Source of the DNA: an uncultured Nitrososphaeraceae archaeon
GTDB taxonomy: Archaea; Thermoproteota; Nitrososphaeria; Nitrososphaerales; Nitrososphaeraceae
Direction of reading: 5' to 3'
Length of the DNA: 64,000 nt
Assembly (NCBI GenBank): GCA_963765895.1
Contig: CAVXZB010000038.1
Coordinates: 1 to 64,000 of the forward strand
The notes beneath the pieces were generated by a model. The model worked only from the letters and a program-made list of their open reading frames with translations, searched no databases and was not told the origin of the DNA. Below, piece after piece: positions 445 to 50,106 of this stretch. The position numbers were made by a program, and so were the translations under genes. Positions within the stretch are counted from its first letter, which is position 1. Each line of letters begins with the position of its first letter.

Positions 445-648
445 TTATGAGGATACCAGCAGCCGCGTAAGAACTACCAACATAATGATTGCAGTTGTAT
501 AGCTAATCCAAGTCACCAGGGTAAGCAGGACGGTATTGTATCCTGAAGATGCCACGATTTGAAAGTTTATAATAAATTCGATGATCACACAGTAGCAGAG
601 AAATGAAACAATTCCGAATATATAATATATAAAAGATATATGATACAA
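445..648 (-). pseudogene. Fragment of a polytopic membrane protein of the same family as 42847..44244
   Basis: FQIVASSGYNTVLLTLVTWISYTTAIIMLVVL aligns by eye with LQIFFQGIYKTVFLRAEVYISHICGLVFLSLL. Confidence 0.45.
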
Positions 649-35566: not shown

Positions 35567-36982
35567 ATGTCAAATACTCGTGTGGAATCAGACTCTATGG
35601 GCGCGATTGAAGTGCCTTCAGTCCATTATTGGGGCGCTCAAACCCAGCGATCCCTTATGCATTTTTCGATTGGAGATAACCGTATGCCCAAGGCTATCGA
35701 TCACGCCTATGGGTATATAAAAAAAGCCTCTGCTATAGTAAATTTGGCTGAAGGCCTACTATCGAAAGATAAAGCTGATCTTATAATCAAAGTCTCTGAC
35801 GAAATTATTAGCGGAAAGCTGGATGAGGAGTTCCCACTTTATGTTTGGCAAACAGGTTCGGGAACCCAGACAAATATGAATGTAAACGAAGTAATTTCTA
35901 ACCGAGCTATTCAGTTAGCAGGAGGGGCTATGGGATCCAAAAACCCAATCCACCCTAACGATCATGTCAATCTGTCGCAATCCTCAAACGATACGTTTCC
36001 AGCTGCAATGCACATAGCCACGGTAATGGAGTTTGCTAATCATCTTATTCCTAACGTCGATTTGTTGATCAGGTCGATAAAGGACAAAGCTATCGAATGG
36101 GCACATATAACAAAAATCGGCCGTACACATTTACAAGACGCAGTGCCACTTACCGTGGGACAAGAATGGTCTGGTTATGCCATACAATTAGCGGATGCTG
36201 TTGAAGTAATTAAACTGTCAATGAAGGGGTTATACAAACTCGCTATTGGCGGGACTGCGGTAGGTACTGGACTAAACGCTCCCAAAGATTTTGGACAGAA
36301 GGTGGCCTTGGAAATATCAAGATCGACTGGTTATCCTTTTGTAACCGCTCCAAACAAATATGCTGCGCAAGCGTCACTTGACGCCATGGTTAACTCTAGC
36401 TCATCTTTGCGTATGTTAGCGGTCGTGCTTATGAAGATAGCAAATGATATACGTTGGCTTGGGTCAGGTCCCAGAGCAGGGATCCACGAGCTGGTTCTAC
36501 CAGAAAACGAACCAGGGTCTTCTATCATGCCTGGTAAGGTCAACCCTACCCAAGAAGAGGCCATGGTTATGGTATGCATACAAGTGATGGGAAATGACAA
36601 TGCAGTAGGGATTGCTGGCTCACAGGGTAATTTTGAGCTCAATGCTATGCGTCCTATTGTTATTAAAAATGTCTTGGAATCTTCACAAATCCTAGGAGAT
36701 GCCTGTGACAAACTTCGCAGATACAGTATAGATGGGATAAAGCTTGACAAGGAGAGAATAGACAAGTATGTTAATGACTCTTTGATGCTTGTCACCGCCC
36801 TAACCCCTGTGATAGGATATGACAAGGCAACATCAATAGCACATAAAGCATTCAAGGAGAATCTGACTTTAAAGGATGCGGCCATTTCTACTGGCTATAT
36901 TAGTTCGGAAGATTACGACAAGATTATCGATCCGTCCAAAATGGTAGGAGATCCTGATAATGATTTGAAGACTATTGACTAA
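35567..36982 (+). CDS. fumC: Class II fumarate hydratase
   Basis: QTGSGTQTNMN, SSNDTFP, GRTHLQDA and GSSIMPGKVNP; likely start MSNTRVESD. Confidence 0.95.
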   Translation: MSNTRVESDSMGAIEVPSVHYWGAQTQRSLMHFSIGDNRMPKAIDHAYGYIKKASAIVNLAEGLLSKDKADLIIKVSDEIISGKLDEEFPLYVWQTGSGTQTNMNVNEVISNRAIQLAGGAMGSKNPIHPNDHVNLSQSSNDTFPAAMHIATVMEFANHLIPNVDLLIRSIKDKAIEWAHITKIGRTHLQDAVPLTVGQEWSGYAIQLADAVEVIKLSMKGLYKLAIGGTAVGTGLNAPKDFGQKVALEISRSTGYPFVTAPNKYAAQASLDAMVNSSSSLRMLAVVLMKIANDIRWLGSGPRAGIHELVLPENEPGSSIMPGKVNPTQEEAMVMVCIQVMGNDNAVGIAGSQGNFELNAMRPIVIKNVLESSQILGDACDKLRRYSIDGIKLDKERIDKYVNDSLMLVTALTPVIGYDKATSIAHKAFKENLTLKDAAISTGYISSEDYDKIIDPSKMVGDPDNDLKTID

Positions 36983-37333
36983 CAAGTTAATTAGTTAATC
37001 GTGCTTGAATTTTCTTACCCATACTATTATACCAGGAATCAGTAGGACAACGGGATTATAGTGCCCACATTTTTGGATCAATCAATATTTACTATTATTA
37101 CCCTGACTGGAGAAATTTCTATTAATATCTCACCTTAATCCTACTCTAGTACAATGGAGGATACTACCCAAATTACTAAATTTACTTATGTATTCATTAA
37201 TCATAATTTTAGGCAAATTCTTAGAAAGACTTCTCATGATATATGGTGATATGATTTATTTTATAGTACACTCTAATAAGACGGATTTTTTAGTATCTCG
37301 ACATAATTTTTAACCATTACATTGGCTTTCAAA

Positions 37334-37782
37334 TTATTCACCCATTATTTGTACTACGATATTCCGTCGCCTAGGTTGGGTATCCATTTCTATTACGACT
37401 ATTTGTTGCCATGTGCCTAGAAGTAAAACATTGTTCACAAACGGAATCGTTAGGCTTGGACCAACCAAGGAAGCACGAACATGCGAGCGGCCGTTACCGT
37501 CATGCCAAGTATTATCATGCTCGTATTCAATATTACTTGGGGCTATTCTGGACAGCATTGCTGGAAAATCTGTTTGAGTCCTGGTTCATATTCGATAGTA
37601 GTTACGGCAGCCGTTGAACCTGAAACAAAAACGGTAACGATTCCGTTAACTATTTTGCACTCTTCCACCATCCTTGATGTCTGTTCTGTTAAGTTAATTA
37701 GGTCACCTTCACCTGCAGACTTAACTTGGATAGTCTTAGTGAGAACTATCATAGTATTGAGATTTTTCACGTCGGTCCGCAC
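37334..37782 (-). pseudogene. YjbQ/UPF0047 family, frameshifted near 37560
   Basis: GSTAAVTTIEYEPGL and NGRSHVRASLVG...LGTWQQI in two frames. Confidence 0.85.
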
Positions 37783-38532
37783 ATTAGTTTATGGGTATAG
37801 TCATTAGTTGTTAATTTGCTTGAAATTATGCAAACTCTTATCACTTAAAGGGCTGAGGATACTTGACAGAATTATTTGAGTTCGAAGGAAAAATTATTCA
37901 ACTAACGGCGAGCGACATATAGTAACCAGTCTTTTATATCTCACATCTGTTCCAACAATCCAAATTGCAATATCAAAAACAATATTGCACCCTCAAACCA
38001 CGGATTGGATCTAATCTATAATATTAAGTAACTAGTCATCTGTTCTAGCATTTTGTGTGGCATCATTGCGTTTAAAAAGATCGGCTGTACTGCTCAAGAA
38101 TTGCAGTAATAATATAGAATCTGGTTACCATCAATTTTTTCAGCCTCTGGCATCTGTTGTAAATCCAAGCGATCCAAAGAACAATAAAATAGGCTAGCGA
38201 TATATTTAATTGAAGCCGACAGACGAGATAGCGCACTTGACCCGGCGCTGGGCCGAATATACCAGTTCGACGGTGTTAAATTAATCTTGAAACTTACTAG
38301 ACTCATGTACGACAACAAAAGAAATTGAAACCTATGAACGTAGATGCAATCCTGGGGGAACTATTAGGCAATTAATGATCTGGATCAATATCGTTATTGC
38401 CTCCTGTCACTATCTCTTTATTTCGAGTGTGATTTGGTGATTCTGCCGGGTAGTGTGTAATCTTGTAAGAATCTGGAATAATGACGGAATCCTTTCGCAT
38501 GGAATTGACGAGGGGCTCAAAAGTTAGTTTAA

Positions 38533-38880
38533 ATATCATTTGACGATCACTTATCTTTTTACTATCTCTTTCCAAATTTCTCTGATGCTACTCTAGAGGA
38601 AAAACCTCTTCACTTAAGGAATGATGAGGCGCACAAGGTTCAATCCAACCTTTTCAGTCTAACTCTACCTAAGGATAATGTCTGGGGAGAACCTGAAGGA
38701 CCAGATAACGCGATTACGCAAGGTTGGTGGAAAATGCTTAGGCCTCTTCCACCAGGAGAACACACTTTGCCTTATACGACAGGATATAGAGATTCGAGAA
38801 GTGATCCTAGTATTACCCATGGACAAGGCAATCTCGCTCCATATATACAAGCTGTGACATATCATCTTAAAGTAAAGTGA
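38533..38880 (+). pseudogene. C-terminal remnant of the uncharacterised 'W..W..GxW' family (paralog 1)
   Basis: HKVQSNLFSLTLPKDNVWGEPEGPDNAITQGWWKMLRPLPPGEHTL...VTYHLKVK; matches the C-half of 39648..40253; no start codon. Confidence 0.8.
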
Positions 38881-38907
38881 GCCCCAGTGACGTTGTTAGA
38901 GTTGTGT

Positions 38908-38966
38908 GCTTCGAAAATGAAGGTTAAAGTTAAAACTAGCAAAATGTATGTTTCAAATATGAAGCA
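38908..38966. promoter_or_regulatory. Pair of TTCAAAwwTGAA-type palindromes (38910-38921, 38952-38963)
   Basis: atgtttcaaatatgaagca differs at one position from atgtttcaaatttgaagca upstream of ycaO. Confidence 0.55.
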
Positions 38967-39647
38967 ATGCAAATGAATTTCAGTTGGAGCTTGACTCATT
39001 AAGAAAGTTATTCAGGAGAACATCTAACTGATGGTCTTACCCTGCTCTTTTATACTGGTAAATTGTAAATCGTATACAGTGCGCGTCAGACGAGACAGAA
39101 CATTCTGATATTGATACCATTTAAGGGATCATGCTATGACAAAATATTTATTACTTCTAGGAGATCAAACCTTTTTAATTTATAACTGGAATCAAGACTA
39201 TCCTTAACATCGTCTCCATCTTGGCCTAGACTTATATCCTTACATGCTTTAGTCGGTACTCCTAACTCTAGATCTGGGTCTCCTTCTGCTACACTTGTAA
39301 TATACCGTATAACAGTCGAATTATTAGTCCTTTCCAGTACATTTGCTAATGCTACACAGGCAGTATTTGTAACATATAGTGAATTTATCATGAAGCAAAT
39401 CATATATTCGCTAAATTATCTAGGAATTTTGCTCTTTAGATCTAGCAATGTATCCGAGAACAGATGTCTGCAGTACGCCCTAATCGCGATGCCTTTTACA
39501 GTCCTGTCATTTGAATATCGAAGCTTTCTGCCTCTAGTCTACTGGTATCGTTAGTTGAATCAATGGCAATGATTTTTAGTCCTAGTAAAGCTCCTCTTGC
39601 GACTAGGTTGCGGTATGAAGTGGTATTCGCAAAAACCTTCAAACGTC

Positions 39648-40253
39648 CTATTCGATTGTGATATCGTAGTTCGCTGCTATCCTCACCTTACCGGATAGAC
39701 ATGCACCCATGGTACGGATGATGTACGTTCTTCTAGGAAGTGATTCAAGGAATAGCCAGTAACCATCAGATATTCCTCGAGTCGGTCCTGGAATTCCCCC
39801 AAATAAGTTATGCTCTGGAAGTATAATATTGAAAAGCGGTGATTGAACCCTGTACTTCTGTAGTTCGTTCAGTTCTATTCCATCAAACGTAACTGATAAA
39901 TCCGAAACTATGTCCATTTCACGCTTTGCAAGTACCTGTAGCTGTTCTTCCGTTTTGATCGTTGGTTCATCCGCAAATGTAGCTCCAAAATTCAGGATAG
40001 GAAAAAGAACCGACTTTTCCGTAGGTACTGTGCATATCCTTTTACCTTCTCCACCGGTTGTCCCAGCCAAGAACCAAACTGGCCCACTTTGATTTATCTT
40101 AGAATTCTTACCTGTTTTATCATTCACTGGACTAGTTTCTATTGGTATTGAAAGTAACCATTGCCACCATCTGGCTGTCCATTCTGCATAACTAACGTTA
40201 TACGGACTTGAATTCGGTGAAACAATGATAAGTTTATCTTTTTCTATTGACAA
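39648..40253 (-). CDS. Uncharacterised 'W..W..GxW' family protein (paralog 2; no signal peptide)
   Basis: PYNVSYAEWTARWWQWLLSIP, GPVWFLAGT, RICTVP and SDGYWLFL. Confidence 0.85.
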   Translation of the reverse strand: MSIEKDKLIIVSPNSSPYNVSYAEWTARWWQWLLSIPIETSPVNDKTGKNSKINQSGPVWFLAGTTGGEGKRICTVPTEKSVLFPILNFGATFADEPTIKTEEQLQVLAKREMDIVSDLSVTFDGIELNELQKYRVQSPLFNIILPEHNLFGGIPGPTRGISDGYWLFLESLPRRTYIIRTMGACLSGKVRIAANYDITIE

Positions 40254-40902
40254 TAGATTCGAAGACTCCTATGATTATCTAGAATCCGAGTGGCACGTAT
40301 TTAGCATTATGCCTCGCAAAGGTGAAGTCCGTCTACATAATCACCATGTGAACTCCGCCTACTCATTAAACTCAGTTACTAGACAATTTTCCTGTCTTAT
40401 GGACAACAATCGATCATAGAATTCTACACGAGCCCAGCAGTCAGAAATTACATTAAAATTATTGCGTGTTGTATCATAGGTCTTTAATTACCTGTAAATC
40501 CCAAGTGCTACAATTTATTAATCACCGATTACCTAGAAAGCATGTGCGTAGAAAGCTAGCAATTCTTAGAGCTTTGATTACTGGAGATGCGTCGATAGAC
40601 TACGTTGAGAAAACCTCAGTAAAGGGAACTCCAGGTGACACGACGTTAGGTGGCCATCAGTAGGTTCCCTTATTAAATCACTGTAAGAGGAAAAGGTTAA
40701 AAGACTGCTCAATTGGCATTGAACATTTTGCTGTTTGATTCATATTCGTACAGCAGCTCTGTATTTACTTTATTCGGAGTTTTACGGCTGTGGCTTTGAT
40801 CATCCTTCTAGTATGGACTGAGCTCAAGTCGTAAAATAAATCAATACCTGGTTTTGAATAGGGGTGTCATTTTTATCCAAAATAGAAATCATGAGATTTG
40901 AT

Positions 40903-42309
40903 CTAATCTCTGTGCATTTTCTTGAAATGTTCTTTTGCTCTACGCCCCATCACTGACTTTGTAACTTCAAATGTTTCAAGTCCTGGAACTATAGCCCTCA
41001 CAACTGGAATGTTAATTTCTGGATTAGTTAGATCAACAATTATGACTCTTTTTATGCCGGCATTCTTCAACCTTGAGATAATCAATTTGATATCGTTCAA
41101 TATATCATCGTTCGTAAATGTTTGAATTTCAGAGAACTTGATGATATTGTTATTTTTATCACATGTGCTGTTGCCGTGCTTCTTGGATGTGGATGCTGTA
41201 CGCATGAATTGCCACTTCCTTTTATATATCTCATCGTTTTCCTTATAGGATATTTTTTTTAAATCATCTCTCGCTCCATGAATATTCACGGCCCTGGTTT
41301 GAGAAGCTTCTGTTATTGCACGTATCAAGGCTATCCTACTATCAGGATGTGCACCGAACCCTTTGGCAAAATATCCGTAATCGTGACTTATCCATTCTAC
41401 CGACGCTGCAACGAAAGTAGGGATGCCAATTTCTTTTTGAGTTATGTTCTTTATTAACAATGAAATCCCTGCACTAGTAAATCTTCTAACCAATCGTTTT
41501 ATGGCCTCAAACTCTTTCGCAATTTCAGAAATATCAATCTCAGCAAAAATACTAGAATCATCAATAAATCTATCCTCACAGGCAACTCTTGCCTCAGGAT
41601 GTCCATACTTCAACGACTCCCAAATTTTATCCAGAATATTATATGGAATACAAGAGGCACACAAATCAGCTATACTAACTGCATCTCTTTCGATAACCTC
41701 ACATAAAGCATGACAAACTGCCTCTTCTAAAACATTCCCTGAAGCGAGGCCATTTGTATGCGTTAGTGAAAAGACCGAAATAGCAGGATCTCTTGGAAAA
41801 TATCTGTACAATGCTATTTCAGCAGGAACTAATACTTCTTCGTTATTCAGAAGATCAAATCCCACCAAGAAATCCAATATTGATTCTTTATCACTAAACC
41901 TGTCATTAACAGGTTCAACTACTTCAGCGGGATGTAATACCTTATTGTAAATTTTTGATAAATGCAAATAAGTTCCCTGAACAAAGTTTCTGTCAGAGGT
42001 GTTACCAAAAGAGGAATATCTTTCTATCGCTTCCATCAACGCACCCGCCTTTGCGTGTAATTTCGTAGTGCCCTTACCACTATACACCCAGAACAGGTCA
42101 TCTGTTCCAGGCAAAACCGCAGAATAATTCGGAATATACAACCTATCCATATATGTTATATCTGATATTCTAGTTATCCCGATTTTGTTAGTTACGGGAA
42201 TTATTTCAGCCAAGGTGTCACTGATAGGTTTCACTCTTGTAAATGCACTATCAGACGTAACATATTTCTTAGTACTCTTAAGAGACAACTCTTGAGATAG
42301 ATGTATCAA
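40903..42309 (-). CDS. ycaO: YcaO-family ATP-dependent peptide backbone-modifying enzyme
   Basis: YSGKG, MEAIERYS, TNGLASGN, EVIERDA, GFGAHPD, RAITEASQTR and VRAIVPGLE; no C-terminal PxPxP. Confidence 0.93.
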   Translation of the reverse strand: MIHLSQELSLKSTKKYVTSDSAFTRVKPISDTLAEIIPVTNKIGITRISDITYMDRLYIPNYSAVLPGTDDLFWVYSGKGTTKLHAKAGALMEAIERYSSFGNTSDRNFVQGTYLHLSKIYNKVLHPAEVVEPVNDRFSDKESILDFLVGFDLLNNEEVLVPAEIALYRYFPRDPAISVFSLTHTNGLASGNVLEEAVCHALCEVIERDAVSIADLCASCIPYNILDKIWESLKYGHPEARVACEDRFIDDSSIFAEIDISEIAKEFEAIKRLVRRFTSAGISLLIKNITQKEIGIPTFVAASVEWISHDYGYFAKGFGAHPDSRIALIRAITEASQTRAVNIHGARDDLKKISYKENDEIYKRKWQFMRTASTSKKHGNSTCDKNNNIIKFSEIQTFTNDDILNDIKLIISRLKNAGIKRVIIVDLTNPEINIPVVRAIVPGLETFEVTKSVMGRRAKEHFKKMHRD

Positions 42310-42362
42310 CTCTGTAACAATACGCGCATAAATATATATTCTTTATACTGCCTTCTTAATTT

Positions 42363-42410
42363 AAAAAATTTGAAGCTAATTGTAGGTTAGATGTTTCAAA
42401 TTTGAAGCAT
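42363..42410. promoter_or_regulatory. Operator-like palindrome ATGTTTCAAATTTGAAGCAT (42391-42410) plus half-site at 42363-42374, upstream of ycaO
   Basis: Perfect 12-bp core TTCAAATTTGAA, near an AT-rich TATA-like segment at about 42330-42346. Confidence 0.6.
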
Positions 42411-42846
42411 TCTTTATGACAATGTATTTTCCATCTCGAATTGAATAGACTAGATATACGGTCACTCGTATCGGATTTCATTGTTCAAATGGAGTGTTGT
42501 TGTTGCTCTTTCTGAAGAGCCTTTATACAAGCAGAATAGAATAAACCGCCCCTCAGCGCATGTCTATGCATAACCGTAGCTATTCTTCTTTAGGATTAGG
42601 ACCAGATATTGTATACATATATAATAAAAAGTCGTGGAATCTCTAGAAAATAGTTCGGTGAATATGTAAGAAGATCCATTTTGAAGATTATCAGATATAC
42701 AATACCAAGTATCGCCTCAAATGTTCTACACCCCCTTCGAGGCCCAATAGACTGATTATCTTCACTGAATTGGGGTTTAACTCACCTAGTTGTCTTTAGT
42801 AGTCTTTCTGAGGCGGGTTAAATACTATTTTCTATCATCCACTCCA

Positions 42847-44244
42847 TCAGGTACCGTCTTGCTCTTTTATTCCCTTTGAATAATAGAGTTCGTTCAAAAC
42901 CTCATGCAAAATTTCCTTCACATTTTCGTCATCCATGGGCACTTGTTCTTGTTCGATGTCTATTGAACGACTGTGTGGAGCGTCCAGTCGCTTTTGAAGT
43001 TCCTTTTCCATCTCCGACACACCAATAGCCCTCAAAAGTCCTAGTTGGTTTGATGCATTCCTGTAAAATTCTTTTCTCAACTGTGAATCTCTTGATATTC
43101 TTTTAGCTGAAGAATGAATACCGACAAATAAGAGATACGATCCTAAGGGTATCAAAGTTTGTGTCGTGAAGCCAAAGGGCGGATAGACATGATATTGTAA
43201 TGGTGATATTTCGAAGGTCGCAAAGAGGATAGCCATTCCTACCGAGGAGATAAGAAGTGTTTTACGAGTTGTTGCATCATAAACAAGATCGGAGGCGGTC
43301 AAAAAGACCAGACTGAACAATAAAGCACCAACTTGTTTTGTAGCACTAAATATTAGGATATAGGTGATAGTATATGAGATCGATGAGTTCTGTAATAAGG
43401 ACAGGAAAACATCTTCAAAATACCCTTGCAAAGGAAAAATGTAGTATATTAACGGTATGCCCATAAATAAAAGGAACTTAATCCTACCAAACTTGCGTCG
43501 ATACTGACGTAATAATATTACCGTGGCGGACCACATAAGCAAAAATGAAGTCAAGGAAAGAGCATCAAAAACCGAAGATAACGATTCTGTAATTGGTAAA
43601 CCTGGAAGATTCGTTACATATGACGTAATTGGGTGCAATGTTATATCTGATACAGATGAAATTGATAGGTAAGAGTCTACGTAAATTAGTGATATAATCA
43701 AATTCACAGAAGCAATTGTGAATGACAGTGTATACAAGATTATTCCCAAATTTTTATTTGAAGTCAACCAACTCATGAATAGAAAAGACAGTAACGAGAG
43801 AAATACTAGTCCGCAAATATGGCTAATGTAGACCTCGGCTCTGAGAAAGACGGTTTTATATATGCCTTGGAAAAAAATCTGGAGAATAATCAGCATCATT
43901 ATTGCGATGCTCGAGAACTGTACTGCAACAATTAAGTTATGATACAACTTAGTTGGAATTGTTGACTTATACTCATAACTTGAAATAACATGTTTAGCTG
44001 CGTTTAGGAGTATAATGCTACTGACAACAAGTACTATAAAAAAAATCACAAAAATAATAACATTCCACGATGTTCCCAGTTCGAATCCGCTATACGAAGT
44101 AAATTTCACGATTGTTGTATCAATTACCACAAGAGTTGTGAAAATTAATATAAAAATAATTGATGACTTTTTGCTAATCTCAAAATTTACATTCCTTACA
44201 ATCTTGTCTCTCAAGCTACTAAGCAAAGGAAAGAAAGTACGCAA
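42847..44244 (-). CDS. Polytopic membrane protein (about 11 TM) with cytoplasmic C-terminal helical tail
   Basis: Hydrophobic helices; YPPFG motif; tail LRKEFY...IGVSEMEKEL...VKEILHEVLNEL. Confidence 0.85.
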   Translation of the reverse strand: MRTFFPLLSSLRDKIVRNVNFEISKKSSIIFILIFTTLVVIDTTIVKFTSYSGFELGTSWNVIIFVIFFIVLVVSSIILLNAAKHVISSYEYKSTIPTKLYHNLIVAVQFSSIAIMMLIILQIFFQGIYKTVFLRAEVYISHICGLVFLSLLSFLFMSWLTSNKNLGIILYTLSFTIASVNLIISLIYVDSYLSISSVSDITLHPITSYVTNLPGLPITESLSSVFDALSLTSFLLMWSATVILLRQYRRKFGRIKFLLFMGIPLIYYIFPLQGYFEDVFLSLLQNSSISYTITYILIFSATKQVGALLFSLVFLTASDLVYDATTRKTLLISSVGMAILFATFEISPLQYHVYPPFGFTTQTLIPLGSYLLFVGIHSSAKRISRDSQLRKEFYRNASNQLGLLRAIGVSEMEKELQKRLDAPHSRSIDIEQEQVPMDDENVKEILHEVLNELYYSKGIKEQDGT

Positions 44245-44320
44245 AGATAAGATACGGAAAGCTATTCCTCTAGTTTAGCTTATCGAAATTCATAATAATA
44301 GCTCAGGGCTAGTTATCTTT

Positions 44321-45154
44321 ATGGACGCAAGCATAGTCTGTTGCCAGATCCGAGCTCCTAATGCATATTCGTGTTTATTAATCGTGCTTTCTTTTGTTAT
44401 GATACTTTGTATTGCTTCCTTTGTACCTAAGAGTGTATATGGTGTCACCTTCTTTTCGAAAAGTGAAAAACCCTTTGGAGTATCATATGATGATTGGGTT
44501 TCTAAATTCTTTAATTGGGACTTTTCCTTAAATGATAGGGAATTCAAGCCGCATAGCGGCGGATGCTTGCATAATAATGCGGGTTCAATGGTCATGCTAA
44601 TGAGTACTGTCGAAGATAGCGCACCTCTTCAGCAGTGCAAGATTTCATCTCAACAGGGGATAATGATACCGCTTTGGATTGCATGGTGCGACAATAAAAA
44701 TGATTTGTCGAAGCTTAGGGATCCTAGTGCCTTAGGAGTGAGTCTCGACCATCAACTGACTGACTGTTCAAGGTTATACAACTTAGGAAACATTAAATCC
44801 AATGTGATAGTCGATGGTGTTCCTGTCGCCAGGCTGGATGTTACACAGTCACTAGTTCCAGGATCCGGTGGTAAGGTATATTACAAAATAAACTCTATGA
44901 AGAATGTTACTGAACTTTACTCGAAAGGATTTGATGCTACTTTACCGCCTGATACCCATCAATCAAGTAACAATCCGGGCAATGTACGTGCTGGAAGTCA
45001 AGGATGGTGGGTCTTTTTGAAACCGCTTGCAGTTGGAAGCCATTCTGTCGTATACAATATTCTGGTCACTCCAACGGGTGCAATGACCTCGCCCGGGACT
45101 AGTATTCATGGAGCGACGATTCCCTACACTCTTTCTGTGGGCAATCCTTCATGA
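44321..45154 (+). CDS. Secreted 'W..W..GxW' family protein (paralog 3)
   Basis: Hydrophobic signal-like N-terminus; KPFGVSYDDWVSKFFNW, QGIMIPLW and GSQGWWVFLKPL. Confidence 0.85.
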   Translation: MDASIVCCQIRAPNAYSCLLIVLSFVMILCIASFVPKSVYGVTFFSKSEKPFGVSYDDWVSKFFNWDFSLNDREFKPHSGGCLHNNAGSMVMLMSTVEDSAPLQQCKISSQQGIMIPLWIAWCDNKNDLSKLRDPSALGVSLDHQLTDCSRLYNLGNIKSNVIVDGVPVARLDVTQSLVPGSGGKVYYKINSMKNVTELYSKGFDATLPPDTHQSSNNPGNVRAGSQGWWVFLKPLAVGSHSVVYNILVTPTGAMTSPGTSIHGATIPYTLSVGNPS

Positions 45155-45599
45155 GTCTATAAGCATAATTCCTTCTATCCGGAACCCTTCTGTAGAAGTA
45201 TACTCATTAATTCAATTGCAGATATATGAGCATAAGAATGCCCTAATCTTGTATAGAATATGTGAAGATAAATTCGTATCCTTCGTCTTCATTACTAACG
45301 ATTCTCGATCTTTAATTTCAAAGTACATTTGGTTTTAGTATGCATTCCTGCTCAGTTGATTGAATAAATTAAATCGAGATGTCTTTGTTCAAGTTATCGC
45401 CATAGGGTTTGTCGGAGCTATCTGACTCCTTCTGAACTATTGAATCCTTTCGAATAAATCCCGTTACTTGTGCACAAGTCCTTGTTCTGATGTACCTATA
45501 CTTTAAGGAGCGCAACTTTAATATGATCAATTACAAAAGGCAGAGACAAAATTGTGACTTTCAATTCTAATTAGACAAGATACGTAAGAAATATTCTCA

Positions 45600-46308
45600 T
45601 TAAGGTATGCTTCTATTCTTGATGATTTCAATTACCTCTTCATCAGAAACGGTTTGAAAATTATGATAATACTGTTCCACCGAGTAACACATAGATGGAG
45701 CCCTAATAATGGCCTCAACTTCAGCCCCACATTCCTTTTCCAGTAAAACGATTGTACTATTTGGAGCAACGGGAACAGCAACTATAAGACGCTTCGGTTC
45801 GATCTCATCCATTCTTAACCATCGTGCAGCAGCAATGATAGTTGCTCCAGTAGCTGCTCCGTCATCTACCAAAATTACTGTTCTCTCATTAAGAAGATGG
45901 TGAAGTCCTTTTCGTGGCTTCTTAAAATAAAGCTCATTTCTTCGCTTAATCTCTTGTATTTGTTCTGTTGTTTCTTTCTCTAAATAGTCTAATGATATCT
46001 GGAGACAGTCAACTAACTTCTGATTAATATATTTAATACCATCTTCTGTAACTGCACCTAACGCAAGCTCATGATTATTTGGGTGCGTAATTCGTCTTGA
46101 TATAAGAGTATCGAATGACGATGTGGACAATTTATTAGCAATAATGTTGGCAGTTATTGTTCCTCCTCTAGGTATCCCTAATACTATAGCGGTTTTTTGT
46201 TCAGTTCTGTTCAGTCTATCCTTTAACGAATCGCCTATTACAGAAGCAGGCAGCAGCTCTGTCTCTAAATTTCAATCGAAGTTTTCTTTTAAGCAAACCA
46301 ATTATCAT
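45600..46308 (-). pseudogene. Phosphoribosyltransferase family (PRT), frameshifted near the N-terminus
   Basis: FRDRAAA, LGIPRGG, ELALGAV, ILVDDGAATGAT and AVPVAP. Confidence 0.85.
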
Positions 46309-46814
46309 CTCTAACAGACAACTAATGCTATGATGATCAATGACTGAAATAAATGTATTAGAGAAGTCAACTAGCAAGTTGATTAGTTTAGCGACCATCT
46401 ATGATATGCTGAGAGTAGAAATGATTTGCTCGACTGCGAAGATAAGCAAAAATTCGAAAGGAGGAAGTAATGACATTCGAGAAATGATTTTGTATGTCAA
46501 TAATGGGCTTGCAAACAATTGGACTTACTAGATACCAAAGGTTAGCATTTATTGATTGTCGTAAGCTGATTTATTTCCTAAATAGATCTTTAATCTTATC
46601 TACCTCTTGATTATTTGACTCGAGTTCTCATTGACAACGACGCTACGATATATATTATTCCTAAATTCGAGAGGTTATATTGCCATAGAGTGGGTTGTCG
46701 GGATAATGCGAGGTACAGCTTGTTACGCTTTATCTCTCATTCGGCATCAAAATAAAACCGGAAATGATATTAACCTGATTAAATATTATAATAAAGTGTC
46801 CATGGTATAAGAAT

Positions 46815-47711
46815 ATGAGTGAGAATATGAATAGTGAAATGAAAGATTTTATGAGCGAAGAGGATATTGAGAGTTATTTTGTTAAGGACTCGTCACTGGC
46901 TAAATCATTGGGTGAAGACAGGTCTCAAAATAGGTTTTATAAGTGGATAAAAAAGGTGATCCATCTGAGTTAACATATGATCATATGTCGCCAATATCTG
47001 ATGTGATGGATCAAAATAACAATGCGATCTTCGACTGTGATACTATAACTGATGAATGGTTTAAGTGGTTCTATACAATTCCAGGGTCTATGAGTCCTGG
47101 TGAACATCCTGGTACGTTATACGGTGACACTAATAGATATGGAGCCTTTTTATTCACCAATAGAAACGTAAAGGTGTACTTTGCTGCGGTAACCCCTTTT
47201 CAGAAACCGGACATCCGAACAATTACGATAACGAATAAAGCTCCTCTTTTGGTTCCGGTTTATAACGTTTCTGCATCTCGAGAGAGCTATCCTGATAAAA
47301 GTGACGAGGATTTGTTAAAGCTTGTCAAACATGATCTCTCTGGTGTACGACCTGCATCCTTTTGGGCATCATTCGACGATTATGACAAAGATTCCAACAA
47401 GTTATACGGTTGCTGTGTTATAAGAAAAACTCCACTTATGATTACAGTACCCGAACATCCGGGATAATATATTCGGAATTCCGGAAGAGAGGCTCCTAAG
47501 AAGTGAAGGGGTTACTCATACTTTTCATGGTGGCTATTGGTTATTAATTAAAGAATCTGCACTCACCCCCGGAGAACATCTGTTGCAATTCAATGCAGAA
47601 TCGAGGAATTATGAGATTCAAGCCAAGATTCTTGTCCGGGTCTTGTACCGATCCGACTTAACCATACCTGGATTTTCAGGTGTCACGAACTTCTGCTACA
47701 CGAAATTTTGA
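46815..47711 (+). pseudogene. Divergent 'W..W..GxW' family protein (paralog 4), frameshifted near 46950 and 47460
   Basis: DEWFKWFYTIP, APLLVPVYN, then DNIFGIP...HGGYWLLIKE..LTPGEHLL in the next frame. Confidence 0.75.
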
Positions 47712-48481
47712 CAGCTTAAATTCCTAACCTAGGGTATGATGCGGGTATCGAGCGATCGAGCTCAGCACTTCCTATATAAGCCCACCTATGCAAATATTAA
47801 CACAATACGCCAAAATAGCCTTGAATATCAAATCTTTATTTCATGAATATGAAGAATCAAGTCACGGACTCATGATTTCGAGTACGAAAAGCATATAATC
47901 ATCATTCGTACATAGGAGTACTACCACAGGCACTAGTATGGAATCAGAATACAAGAGAAGTTATATGGAGTTTTCGGGTGTTGTCTATTATATAAAGGAA
48001 TTTTCAGATTGATCGCAGGGCATTCTTTCAGCATGTATATACTTCTTACTATACATAAATTTATCAAATGAAGTCACGGTCAGAGAAATAAATTTTACCT
48101 CGTACCAATTTCTGCACAATTTTCAATTAATCTACAAGACTGTCATCTACATGCTTTCAAATAAATGCATGAAAGGTAGTCAGTTTGCTAATCGTGGTAC
48201 TCAGTATTTTGTTAGTGAATAACTCGCCATAGAAACACAGGATCTAATTCAAATTTGATAGACGAAACCCCTTTTTTTTCCGGCATTCAGTGCTACCAAT
48301 TTAATACATCGTGATCAGTACTCCATAGCCTTATTATGAAAGCAGAGACAACCTAAACTACTAAGGCAAAATATTACAGACTAAAGTCAAGTATATTTTC
48401 AGACTATCGAATTAAAAAGGGATTTGTTGGCTCTCGTCACACATCTGATTATTATTATGGGAGTTTATTCGTAAGACATCT

Positions 48482-49341
48482 ATGGATAAAAAAAATTTGA
48501 TTATAATAAGTTTTATTATTCTAATTGGAGTATCGCTACTAATTTATTTTTACTATTTCCAAAAAAATCAGATTTCCCCAACCATATTCAGACATATTTT
48601 CAAGGTAAAAGAAATTTATCCTACAAAACATGGTGGGAGGGAATGGTTCCTCGACAGAAATAATCCAACAAGTGATGGTATATTTGATCCGGGTTCACCG
48701 ATAAGACAACGAGCCGATGCATCTTGGGAAATAAACGGAAACCTTAGGCCCGGTAACAAATATGAGGATCAAGTTAGAATGACTGTCGGAACACCAAACA
48801 GTCAGGAGCAGTGGAAGAATGTGGAGATAACAGGATATGCCAGAGTATTATCAGCTGACTCTAACTCAGATGATTTAGATTGGTATGCAAGAGGTGGAAC
48901 TCATAGCAGCGATGTTCCTTGTGAGGGTACCGCATTAAAAGGAAGTATTTCTGTTGACGGAGAGGTATCCTGGCTAAAGGAGATATGGCATACCGGAGGT
49001 TATACTAGGCCTAAAGATACCCATAAGGTCACAGATTCCATACTTAATAGGTGGGTCGGTTGGAAGGTAGTGATGTATAACATTCATGATAACAAGGCAG
49101 TAAAAATGGAGTCATATCTTGATAATAATGATGATAACCATTGGAAAAAGGTATCTGAATTGGTCGATGATGGGGGTTGTATGCGAGAAGTTCAAATGAA
49201 GAGTTTTACAGTGCAAATTGCAACAGAGCAAAAGACTATATAATTACGAATTCCGGACCGTTTGTAACATTCCGATCAGATAATATGGACTGGGACTTCG
49301 CAGACCTCAGCGTAAGAGAAATCGAGCCACCATCGCAATAG
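48482..49341 (+). CDS. Membrane-anchored beta-rich (carbohydrate-binding-like) protein, frameshift near 49178
   Basis: N-terminal TM; EIYPTKHGGREW, WKNVEITGY and WYARGG; continues WYARSSNEEF...FRSDN...SVREIEPP. Confidence 0.75.
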
Positions 49342-49743
49342 CACTTCAACATACCTTTTCCTTACATTCCAACATGGAAATATCTTTTGATTTGTAGAAA
49401 TAAAATTCTATAAATCAACAAACATAATCTTGCATCAATACCAAGTATTTGGCAGAGACGTCAAAGAAGTACTGGTTCTAACCCGTAGTCGATCTTAGCA
49501 TCGAACTGTGAATTGCCTAATTCTAATATCGAGAAATTATATTATTATAAGTCAAAGCAGTATAAATTTGATAGTGTCCATTATGCTATCTAGCGTACAA
49601 ATCATCAAGATTTAATTTGCCCAAATTAGGTAATGCATCTCAAAAGACAGTCGAGCAATCCCGAAAATCTGTATTATGATAATTATATCAAGTGGGTGTT
49701 ACCCCATGAATAACTGCTATGGTTTATACTTTATTTGTTTAGA

Positions 49744-50106
49744 CTAGACTGTCAACTTACTTTGGGAATGTGTATGATTTTCATTCCAGTGTTTCAGAAA
49801 TGCGTCGATATTTCTGTCCAGTGCTTCTTTTGAGTGAAGAAGAAATGATCCACCAAATTCCCAACCCAATTTGTCACATTCCAGACACTCCTTTTGATAT
49901 GTAGGACTATTACCATGTGCTTCGCCGACAACACATTTTGAAGGATGATCAAGTTCGTAATACCATTTAAACCATGTGAAAGTTAATGGAAATGGTAGTT
50001 TGTTACCTGGTTCCAATCTATTAGCCCATTTTGGCGCAAGTTCCTTCAGAGTCAATGGTCTAACTGGGTTTTGTACTTCCAAACCAAAATCAGTAGTGAG
50101 TGACAT
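49744..50106 (-). CDS. Hypothetical protein, probable metal-binding (CVVGEAH, CxxC, HWNENH)
   Basis: Intact 120-aa ORF. Confidence 0.75.
   Translation of the reverse strand: MSLTTDFGLEVQNPVRPLTLKELAPKWANRLEPGNKLPFPLTFTWFKWYYELDHPSKCVVGEAHGNSPTYQKECLECDKLGWEFGGSFLLHSKEALDRNIDAFLKHWNENHTHSQSKLTV

Follow-up and report, generated by a model that had tools for sequence, protein, structure and literature searches.

Our analysis concerns a window of 64,000 nucleotides (nt), the first stretch of contig CAVXZB010000038.1 from the genome of an uncultured archaeon of the family Nitrososphaeraceae (assembly GCA_963765895.1; 4.9 Mb in 88 contigs, 88% complete). A first-pass annotation had singled out in it a YcaO gene surrounded by members of an uncharacterised family, which we call W, and by a polytopic membrane protein, which we call MEMB, as a candidate undescribed system. 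The open reading frame (ORF) listing and our family scans recovered every gene that it had named: the region holds one YcaO gene (YcaO2 hereafter), three W-family genes and one W remnant, and a membrane gene of about ten helices. Two features were absent from that annotation, namely a small gene next to YcaO2 and an in-frame TGA in a phosphoribosyltransferase (PRTase)-like gene. The small gene is at the heart of our interpretation, in which YcaO2 and the encoded peptide probably form an enzyme-precursor pair resembling those that make peptides synthesised by the ribosome and modified post-translationally (RiPPs). The features of the locus, with lengths in amino acids (aa), are the following:

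38533..38877, + strand: W-family remnant, a stop-to-stop frame matching W profile positions 120-190 of 200 (E 4.2e-20)
39648..40253, - strand: pA, W family, 201 aa, no hydrophobic N-terminus (profile and AlphaFold2 model)
40544..40663, + strand: small gene of 39 codons and a stop, starting with GTG; encodes the candidate precursor peptide of YcaO2
40903..42309, - strand: YcaO2, 468 aa (Pfam YcaO, E 6.3e-71)
42847..44244, - strand: MEMB, polytopic membrane protein, 465 aa (AlphaFold2 model; no Pfam or NCBIfam match)
44321..45154, + strand: pB, W family, signal- or anchor-bearing, 277 aa (W profile, E 6e-47)
45600..46286, - strand: PRTase-like gene, disrupted (Pfam Pribosyltran, E 5e-8)
46815..47711, + strand: pC, divergent W subfamily, no signal peptide, two frameshifts (tblastn and W profile)

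MEMB lies upstream of the YcaO gene on the same strand, and stands head-to-head with pB across a gap of 76 nt.

YcaO2 passes the gathering threshold of PF02624 (239.8 bits against 25.7) over the whole profile (positions 1-325 of 325). Its best NCBIfam model is TIGR03266, the McrA-thioamidation type, at 266.1 bits and under the equivalog cut-off of 365, and it reaches 154.9 bits with the azoline-type model TIGR03604 (SagD type), below the cut-off of 219.25. The C-terminal PxPxP is a usual mark of azoline-forming YcaOs, and neither the sequence nor the alignment has one at the C-terminus of YcaO2. The closest solved structure is that of MJ1094 from M. jannaschii (6pe3, E 1.4e-39), which we take to be a TfuA-independent thioamide-forming YcaO. 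In an alignment of 25 YcaO sequences, five of them YcaO2, the residues E93, E96, R97, E195, E196, E204, E207, R208, D209, R330 and E334 are invariant, and these glutamate and arginine motifs align to MJ1094. Since conserved acidic and arginine motifs presumably make up the nucleotide site of YcaO enzymes, and those of YcaO2 are intact, the enzyme looks active. Features specific to YcaO2 include a stretch of 10-15 residues inserted after WQF, and AKG[FY]G in place of AEGHG.

We assembled 18 distinct YcaO2 loci (the window, L023-L030, L074, L075 and L078-L084), leaving out L077, L085 and L086, which duplicate earlier ones. A quick IQ-TREE run on 35 rows, whose careful counterpart was unfinished, put all eight YcaO2 sequences in one clade with an SH-like approximate likelihood ratio test (SH-aLRT) value of 100, and FastTree on 44 rows, rooted on two out-of-family sequences, put 17 of 17 in one clade with support of 1.0 and a stem of length 0.33. 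This clade nests among TfuA-linked YcaOs of the same taxonomic family and is therefore a lineage-specific duplicate: YcaO2 is a Nitrososphaeraceae-specific, TfuA-less paralogue of the archaeal thioamide-type YcaO. The same genome has a housekeeping YcaO (C24:68813-70120) with TfuA directly after it (the pair spans C24:68813-70801, or L020 8814-10801), an arrangement found in all 27 housekeeping loci, one from each of 27 Nitrososphaerales genomes. No TfuA occurs in the fetched flanks of the 18 YcaO2 loci, the one TfuA elsewhere in the source genome being that at C24. Conversely, the fetched flanks of the 27 housekeeping YcaO-TfuA loci contain no W, MEMB, PRTase-like or small-peptide gene. Not all copies of YcaO2 are whole: the gene is a pseudogene, present in pieces, in genome G020, and is truncated in G023.

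The small gene came to light as a block in the 650-nt spacer between pA and YcaO2 that is conserved with the closest orthologous locus, and that translated searches recovered downstream of every other YcaO2. The block is an ORF of 39-40 codons on the strand opposite YcaO2. Its conservation is clearly of the coding type. Over 17 copies the summed column entropy is 32.8, 23.0 and 59.7 at codon positions 1, 2 and 3, the third being about twice the first and more than twice the second; invariant residues are encoded by two to four synonymous codons; no second frame stays open throughout the 17 copies; and the stop falls at one position in every copy, as TAG, TGA or TAA. These patterns indicate that 40544-40663 codes for a protein, and point to strong purifying selection on it. 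We also considered a known RNA as the content of the block, and rejected it: a scan of 36000-50000 with Rfam gave a single small nucleolar RNA-like match, which is sub-threshold at 22 bits against 88.

The peptide has the consensus M-R-K-x-x-A-x-L-K-A-L-I-x-G-x-A-S-I-D-Y-I-x-K-T-x-I-x-R-T-P-G-D-V-T-x-x-x-G-H-N. Its invariant residues are concentrated at the extreme C-terminus, TPG..T...GH[NQ], or more fully TPG-[DEN]-[VT]-T-x3-4-(G)H-[NQ], and its N-terminal part has a conserved, helix-like ALxxxxxS..K pattern. We infer that, in a candidate precursor of this kind, the N-terminal part would be the leader and the C-terminal part the core. No Pfam or NCBIfam model matched the peptide at E up to 10. 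When 1.84 billion representative proteins were searched with its profile, 57 matched at E up to 1e-3. Of the 39 that were retrieved, 37 are peptides 34-80 aa long that carry the motif, in most cases at the very C-terminus, and the other two are repeat proteins unrelated to the family.

DNA downstream of YcaO2 is available for 16 loci, and in all 16 the peptide gene faces YcaO2 in convergent orientation, at 54-452 nt from the YcaO2 stop; the other two (L030 and L084) break off there at a contig edge and are not evaluable. A first round of eight loci had given this arrangement, and searches started from either partner extended it. Three new genomes came from a search with the peptide only, and two of them have YcaO2 convergent beside it; seven new loci came from a search with YcaO2 only, and the peptide is present in all six with downstream DNA. 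In 41 close relatives, each YcaO2 with DNA downstream has one strong peptide match beside it, and there are no strong matches elsewhere. In a class-wide search of 401 genomes, the peptide profile was found in five genomes of a single family, that is, in the source genome and in 4 of the 78 others of its family, and in none of 322 from other families. A RiPP precursor is expected to be a short gene that co-occurs one-to-one with a modifying enzyme, and this is how the peptide gene behaves, one orphan in genome G215 apart. The pairing of enzyme and peptide is well supported. The idea of the first-pass annotation that the YcaO modifies a peptide or a protein in a RiPP-like system has in this way gained a candidate substrate as regards the peptide; we saw no sign that YcaO2 acts on a W protein or on the membrane protein.

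The W family has aromatic-rich motifs that the first-pass annotation had described as shared among the paralogues. They are real, and map to the invariant columns W25, W29, W32, F141, P146, G164 and W166 in an alignment of 44 homologues of pA. In total, pA has 362 homologues, and the 120 listed have no Pfam domain and either no name or only that of hypothetical protein. Its AlphaFold2 model, with a predicted local distance difference test (pLDDT) of 93.3, has an N-terminal Trp-rich helix packed on an immunoglobulin (Ig)-like beta-sandwich. Attempts to assign pA to a specific fold family yielded nothing beyond generic Ig-like matches (Foldseek E 1.4e-3 at best, VIA Z up to 6.2), chagasin/ICP-type inhibitors among them, and an Atlas search with pA returned only unnamed Nitrososphaerota clusters. 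The open frame of pA is only 206 aa long, so that a signal peptide would not fit, and the protein is predicted to be a cytoplasmic-type member of the family. In contrast, pB carries an N-terminal hydrophobic segment (17-residue Kyte-Doolittle mean of 3.03). A complex prediction for YcaO2 with pA scored 0.00 against a mark of 0.32, which counts neither way.

The two other W features of the window are broken. pC, first delimited as 46943-47467 (+), is split over three pieces (46815-46955, 46949-47452 and 47427-47648), in frames 3, 2 and 3, as delimited by tblastn with an intact orthologue of 279 aa at L013 that is 81% identical; the W profile matches it at 46943-47464 (positions 25-145) and 47442-47708 (positions 146-195). 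The remnant corresponds to the C-terminal third of the W domain, with an A1 profile match at 38611-38781 (E 2.3e-10).

Of 24 other family genomes, 19 have W genes, with as many as 35 matches in a single genome; none of 16 genomes from the order's other families has any. The source genome has 17 W matches in its 4.9 Mb, which puts about 2% of positions within 3 kb of one. The W domain is also found fused to dCache_1 (53.8 bits, cut-off 45) in a signal-anchored protein of about 570 aa. The copies of this fusion in the source genome lie at G000:C11:22446-24158 (L037 6447-8162) and G000:C17:4365-6092, and frames of similar length occur in at least nine other genomes. Near-identity between the C11 and C17 copies, and likewise between the C67 and C68 loci, suggests that the assembly contains redundancy or a mixture of strains.

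The AlphaFold2 model of MEMB (pLDDT 72.5) has about ten membrane helices and a helical cytoplasmic tail of about 80 residues. Neither Pfam (E up to 0.1) nor NCBIfam gave a match, HisKA_7TM (PF16927) included, and Foldseek with the model gave none at E up to 1e-3. With VIA, residues ~128-420 align to seven-transmembrane (7TM) receptors and rhodopsins with Z up to 11.8, below the value of about 13 needed for helical bundles, and no transporter ranks above these folds. The modelled likeness to 7TM proteins would be one of arrangement, not of membership. The Atlas gave a feature score of 0.82 between MEMB and the nearest named cluster, HisKA_7TM (39% of its members carry PF16927), which we treat as a lead only. 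There are also long homologues: in 4 of 4 long ORFs examined (L021, L087, L088 and L089) a MEMB-homologous domain forms the N-terminus of a histidine kinase of about 860-1030 aa with HisKA and HATPase_c domains. Judged by its sequence, the MEMB of the window is a stand-alone relative of a histidine-kinase input domain and not itself a kinase.

Like W, MEMB is confined to the family in our sample, being present in 23 of 24 other family genomes, with up to 30 matches in one genome, and in 0 of 16 genomes from other families of the order. Its orthologues (47-81% identity) stand head-to-head with a pB orthologue in six of six cases. More broadly, of 38 mapped MEMB genes that measure 600 nt or more, 23 stand head-to-head with a W gene (24 counting one overlapping pair), 21 of these W partners have a hydrophobic N-terminus, and 32 of the 38 have a W gene within 3 kb, in a sample that is biased because several loci were fetched for having both families on the same contig. 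W genes of about 200 aa without a signal peptide adjoin many of the MEMB-W pairs, including in the complete genome G007, which lacks YcaO2. These elements make up a Nitrososphaeraceae-specific and much duplicated module in three parts: MEMB, a W protein that is secreted or anchored and whose gene stands head-to-head with that of MEMB, and one or more cytoplasmic W proteins. In the window itself, a 67-aa ORF at 445-648 (-), 38 kb from the locus, matches MEMB profile positions 80-141 (E 1e-10) and is probably another fragment of the family. The fusions of MEMB to histidine kinases and of W to dCache_1 point to a role in sensing. The first-pass annotation had cast the W family as ligand binders and the membrane protein as a transducer or transporter; both sets of fusions fit a sensor or transducer, while ligand binding by the W proteins is pure conjecture.

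The YcaO2-peptide pair and the W/MEMB module are found together well beyond the window. A W gene lies within 3 kb of YcaO2 in 17 of 18 loci, the exception being a contig of 3.2 kb, against 0 of 27 YcaO-TfuA loci, and MEMB is in the fetched flanks of 11 of the 18. In genome G417, the locus reproduces the gene content of the window and, except for pC, its order: cytoplasmic W, peptide, YcaO2, MEMB and secreted W. In several loci (L030 and L079-L083) YcaO2 is preceded, at a distance of 116-226 nt, by a W gene of the same orientation. The clustering noticed at the outset does recur in other genomes, contrary to what would be expected if the families did not co-occur with YcaO2. It also goes beyond chance, 17 of 18 loci comparing with the ~2% expected from the density of W genes, in loci that share descent and are not independent trials. 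We had entertained the idea that the YcaO was a chance neighbour, because MEMB-pB orthologue pairs with informative flanks had no YcaO downstream; this was overturned by the finding that the YcaO2 clade travels with W genes. Gene order and orientation around YcaO2 vary.

The remaining neighbours are less constant. As assembled, the PRTase-like gene has an in-frame TGA at 46272-46274, upstream of its GIPRGG loop, and the first ATG, GTG or TTG after it falls downstream of the loop. Together with pC and the W remnant, this makes three neighbours in the window that are broken as assembled. Of the sequencing runs listed for this DNA, none is of RNA, and the four of DNA belong to a single study. In L027, L082 and L076, YcaO2 or the peptide has an intact PRTase homologue of 236-244 aa as a neighbour, with a partial match in L030; beside the cassette in other genomes, the intact homologues are often accompanied by a DLH-like hydrolase. 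As a constant partner of the cassette the PRTase was rejected, being present in only 4 of 18 YcaO2 loci. Clustering of all ORFs of at least 90 aa from 19 loci gave no further family in more than four of them that might serve as a constant E1-like, Ocin-ThiF-like or RiPP recognition element (RRE) partner, with only some of the neighbours scanned against Pfam.

A few neighbours deserve mention in their own right. At L083 2523-3695 (+), about 160 nt from the peptide gene and divergent from it, lies a papain-family Peptidase_C1 gene (E 2.5e-15) carrying an intein-splicing-like segment that is below threshold; homologues occur in 3 of 19 loci (L083, L074 and L080), and the protein is a candidate leader peptidase. 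A Dyp-type peroxidase at L029 282-1634 (+) (Dyp_perox_C, E 4.6e-23) likewise stands beside the cassette in 3 of 19 loci (also L080 and L081), and in L028 a class-I methyltransferase with a winged helix-turn-helix domain separates a W gene from the peptide. In the closest orthologous locus, that of genome G006, a gene of 526 aa with a weak GNAT match (L026 1764-3344, -) is placed between the W remnant and pA; the window has no counterpart of it, 38900-39600 containing short ORFs only. Downstream of pC, a gene at 48482-49243 (+) encodes a membrane-anchored protein of 253 aa without Pfam or NCBIfam match; it has paralogues at about eight loci in the genome and is syntenic with pC and pB in G006 (L013). 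Another, at 49744-50106 (-), encodes a 120-aa protein, also without Pfam or NCBIfam match, that has paralogues at three loci in the genome.

The reading towards which we lean, with moderate confidence, is that YcaO2 and the peptide constitute a RiPP-like enzyme-precursor cassette, lodged in a W/MEMB host module and possibly working with it. The peptide of 39-40 residues would be the substrate of YcaO2, which would use ATP to phosphorylate a backbone amide in the TPG..T...GH[NQ] core. The most parsimonious product would be a thioamide, because YcaO2 descends from a thioamide-forming clade; the alternative would be an oxazoline at the invariant Thr. The W proteins might present the peptide, bind the product, or be unrelated to either.

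Several observations weigh against this reading or against parts of it. YcaO2 falls short of the scores that would make it an equivalog, both for the thioamide type (266 bits, with 365 required) and for the azoline type (155 bits, with 219 required). Genome G215, which is 97% complete, has the peptide gene, with THG in place of TPG, but no YcaO2; its YcaO complement is a housekeeping YcaO and a distant YcaO-like ORF, and its orphan peptide adjoins a W gene and a PRTase-like gene. G020 has YcaO2 in pieces and yet an intact peptide gene. Enzyme and peptide do not form one operon, because their genes are convergent. The shared descent of the loci means that our counts overstate independence. Across the 19 loci we saw no constant export, protease or RRE gene, and Peptidase_C1, the Dyp-type peroxidase and the DLH-like hydrolase are each in only three. 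Moreover, the role of the peptide as substrate, the chemistry and the coupling of cassette and module are all things that we infer.

That coupling is the most exposed part, and we see the odds on it as roughly even. The module mostly occurs without YcaO2, since MEMB is in 23 and W in 19 of 24 family genomes, against 5 of 24 for the peptide; the complete genome G007 has MEMB, secreted W and cytoplasmic W with only a YcaO-TfuA; and in the W tree the genes beside YcaO2 form no clade of their own and are scattered, so that the coupling may be mere shared residence in a variable region. These facts, with the variable gene order and orientation and the frequent pseudogenes (pC, the PRTase-like gene and the remnant in the window, YcaO2 in G020), are what one would expect if YcaO2 and the peptide were a self-contained unit in a fast-evolving, paralogue-rich region, among unrelated neighbours, with W and MEMB taking no part in the peptide. 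We find this explanation unlikely, if still worth taking seriously. It fits poorly with the W genes near 17 of 18 YcaO2 loci and near the orphan peptide, where about 2% would be expected, with their absence from the 27 YcaO-TfuA loci, and with the short same-strand spacing upstream of YcaO2 in several loci; besides, the association persists down to about 55-60% identity between YcaO2 sequences.

A bolder version of our reading would make the locus a self-contained signalling system, based on a peptide, in ammonia-oxidising soil archaea, in which the modified 39-aa peptide is the ligand of W proteins outside and inside the cell and MEMB relays the signal. The many copies of the module without YcaO2 would then be diversified receptors for related signals. 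We hold this to be improbable. If true, archaea would have in this locus a counterpart of quorum or kin sensing by RiPPs, made up of families in which no member has been described.

There is little to recommend, in our view, the proposal that YcaO2 modifies a protein of the cluster, be it a W paralogue or the tail of MEMB, with the 39-aa product as a regulator or accessory subunit. The ancestral archaeal YcaO-TfuA does modify a large protein, McrA, according to Nayak 2017 (PMC5589413), the tandem W paralogues beside YcaO2 in L024 and L025 resemble multi-copy substrates, and peptide and YcaO2 are not co-transcribed. Nevertheless, the W proteins are folded Ig-like domains in a confident model (pLDDT 93) and mostly occur without YcaO2, the peptide is the only partner that tracks YcaO2 one-to-one, and its invariant residues are placed at the extreme C-terminus in a pattern that is core-like, not fold-like. 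One could also see in the locus a relic in decay, with a duplicated YcaO whose partner and function are gone and a small ORF next to it that is conserved by chance; this would accord with the broken neighbours in the window, the damaged YcaO2 of G020 and G023 and the patchiness of the cassette (5 of 401 sampled genomes of the class), but it is very hard to reconcile with a full-length YcaO2 whose motifs are invariant in the window and most loci, with the strong purifying selection that codon-position entropy and the use of two to four synonymous codons indicate for the peptide, and with the persistence of the pair across at least 17 divergent loci.

The locus, on the reading that we favour, resembles three kinds of known systems in one part or another, and differs from each. 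The nearest is the archaeal YcaO-TfuA pair (McrA thioglycine of methanogens; TIGR03266, methan_mark_1; MJ1094, 6pe3/6peu), which YcaO2 is like in its best NCBIfam and PDB matches and its position in the tree, and of which a canonical copy is also kept in the same genome, at C24. Unlike that pair, YcaO2 scores below the equivalog cut-off, has no TfuA in 18 loci, carries the insertion after WQF and the AKG[FY]G motif, and has as candidate substrate a 39-aa peptide, not a large enzyme subunit. The partner-independent YcaO pathways for RiPPs (bottromycin and streptamidine-type), as described in PMC8442711, share with our cassette a stand-alone YcaO, one family of short precursors per YcaO clade, precursors missed by standard models and variable accessory genes. 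In contrast to them, YcaO2 is in Nitrososphaeraceae and in another YcaO clade, its peptide is unrelated in sequence and encoded convergently, and no constant hydrolase, dehydrogenase or E1-like partner came up among its neighbours. Finally, histidine-kinase membrane input domains such as HisKA_7TM (PF16927), with their extracytoplasmic binding proteins, recall MEMB in its kinase-fused homologues, its 7TM-like core and the gene for a secreted partner head-to-head with it; in contrast, the MEMB of the window has no kinase or other known output domain, only the helical tail of about 80 residues, and the W partner family also has cytoplasmic members, an arrangement for which we found no counterpart among described systems.

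Parts of this picture have precedents. YcaOs of ammonia-oxidising archaea have already been placed in the methanogen clade (Nayak 2017, PMC5589413), eight TfuA-related clusters have been counted in Thaumarchaeota (Malit 2021, PMC8120280), archaeal YcaO-type clusters have been counted in a survey (PMC12144867), and RiPPER has linked stand-alone YcaOs of Actinobacteria to novel precursors of small size (Russell 2021, PMC8442711). In the literature that we searched, there is no description of a TfuA-less YcaO clade in Nitrososphaeraceae, of the peptide, or of the W or MEMB families, with the limit that supplementary cluster tables may list such clusters generically. What is already known is YcaO-TfuA in ammonia-oxidising archaea; what would be new is the YcaO2-peptide pair as a probable YcaO-dependent, RiPP-like cassette.

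We are aware of no ammonia-oxidising archaeon from which a modified peptide has been characterised, and the YcaO2-peptide pair is a lead to the first. We also know of no methyl-coenzyme M reductase (MCR) in these organisms, which is why the substrate of their YcaOs, those of the YcaO-TfuA pairs included, is a puzzle. The product of YcaO2 would tell whether a YcaO derived from thioamide-forming enzymes, and working without TfuA, keeps thioamide chemistry or has switched to another. The W/MEMB module is among the larger lineage-specific expansions of Nitrososphaeraceae: matches number as many as 30-35 in a genome, and a single fold family is present on either side of the membrane. The link of MEMB to the input domains of histidine kinases suggests an unexplored sensory repertoire in these drivers of soil nitrification.

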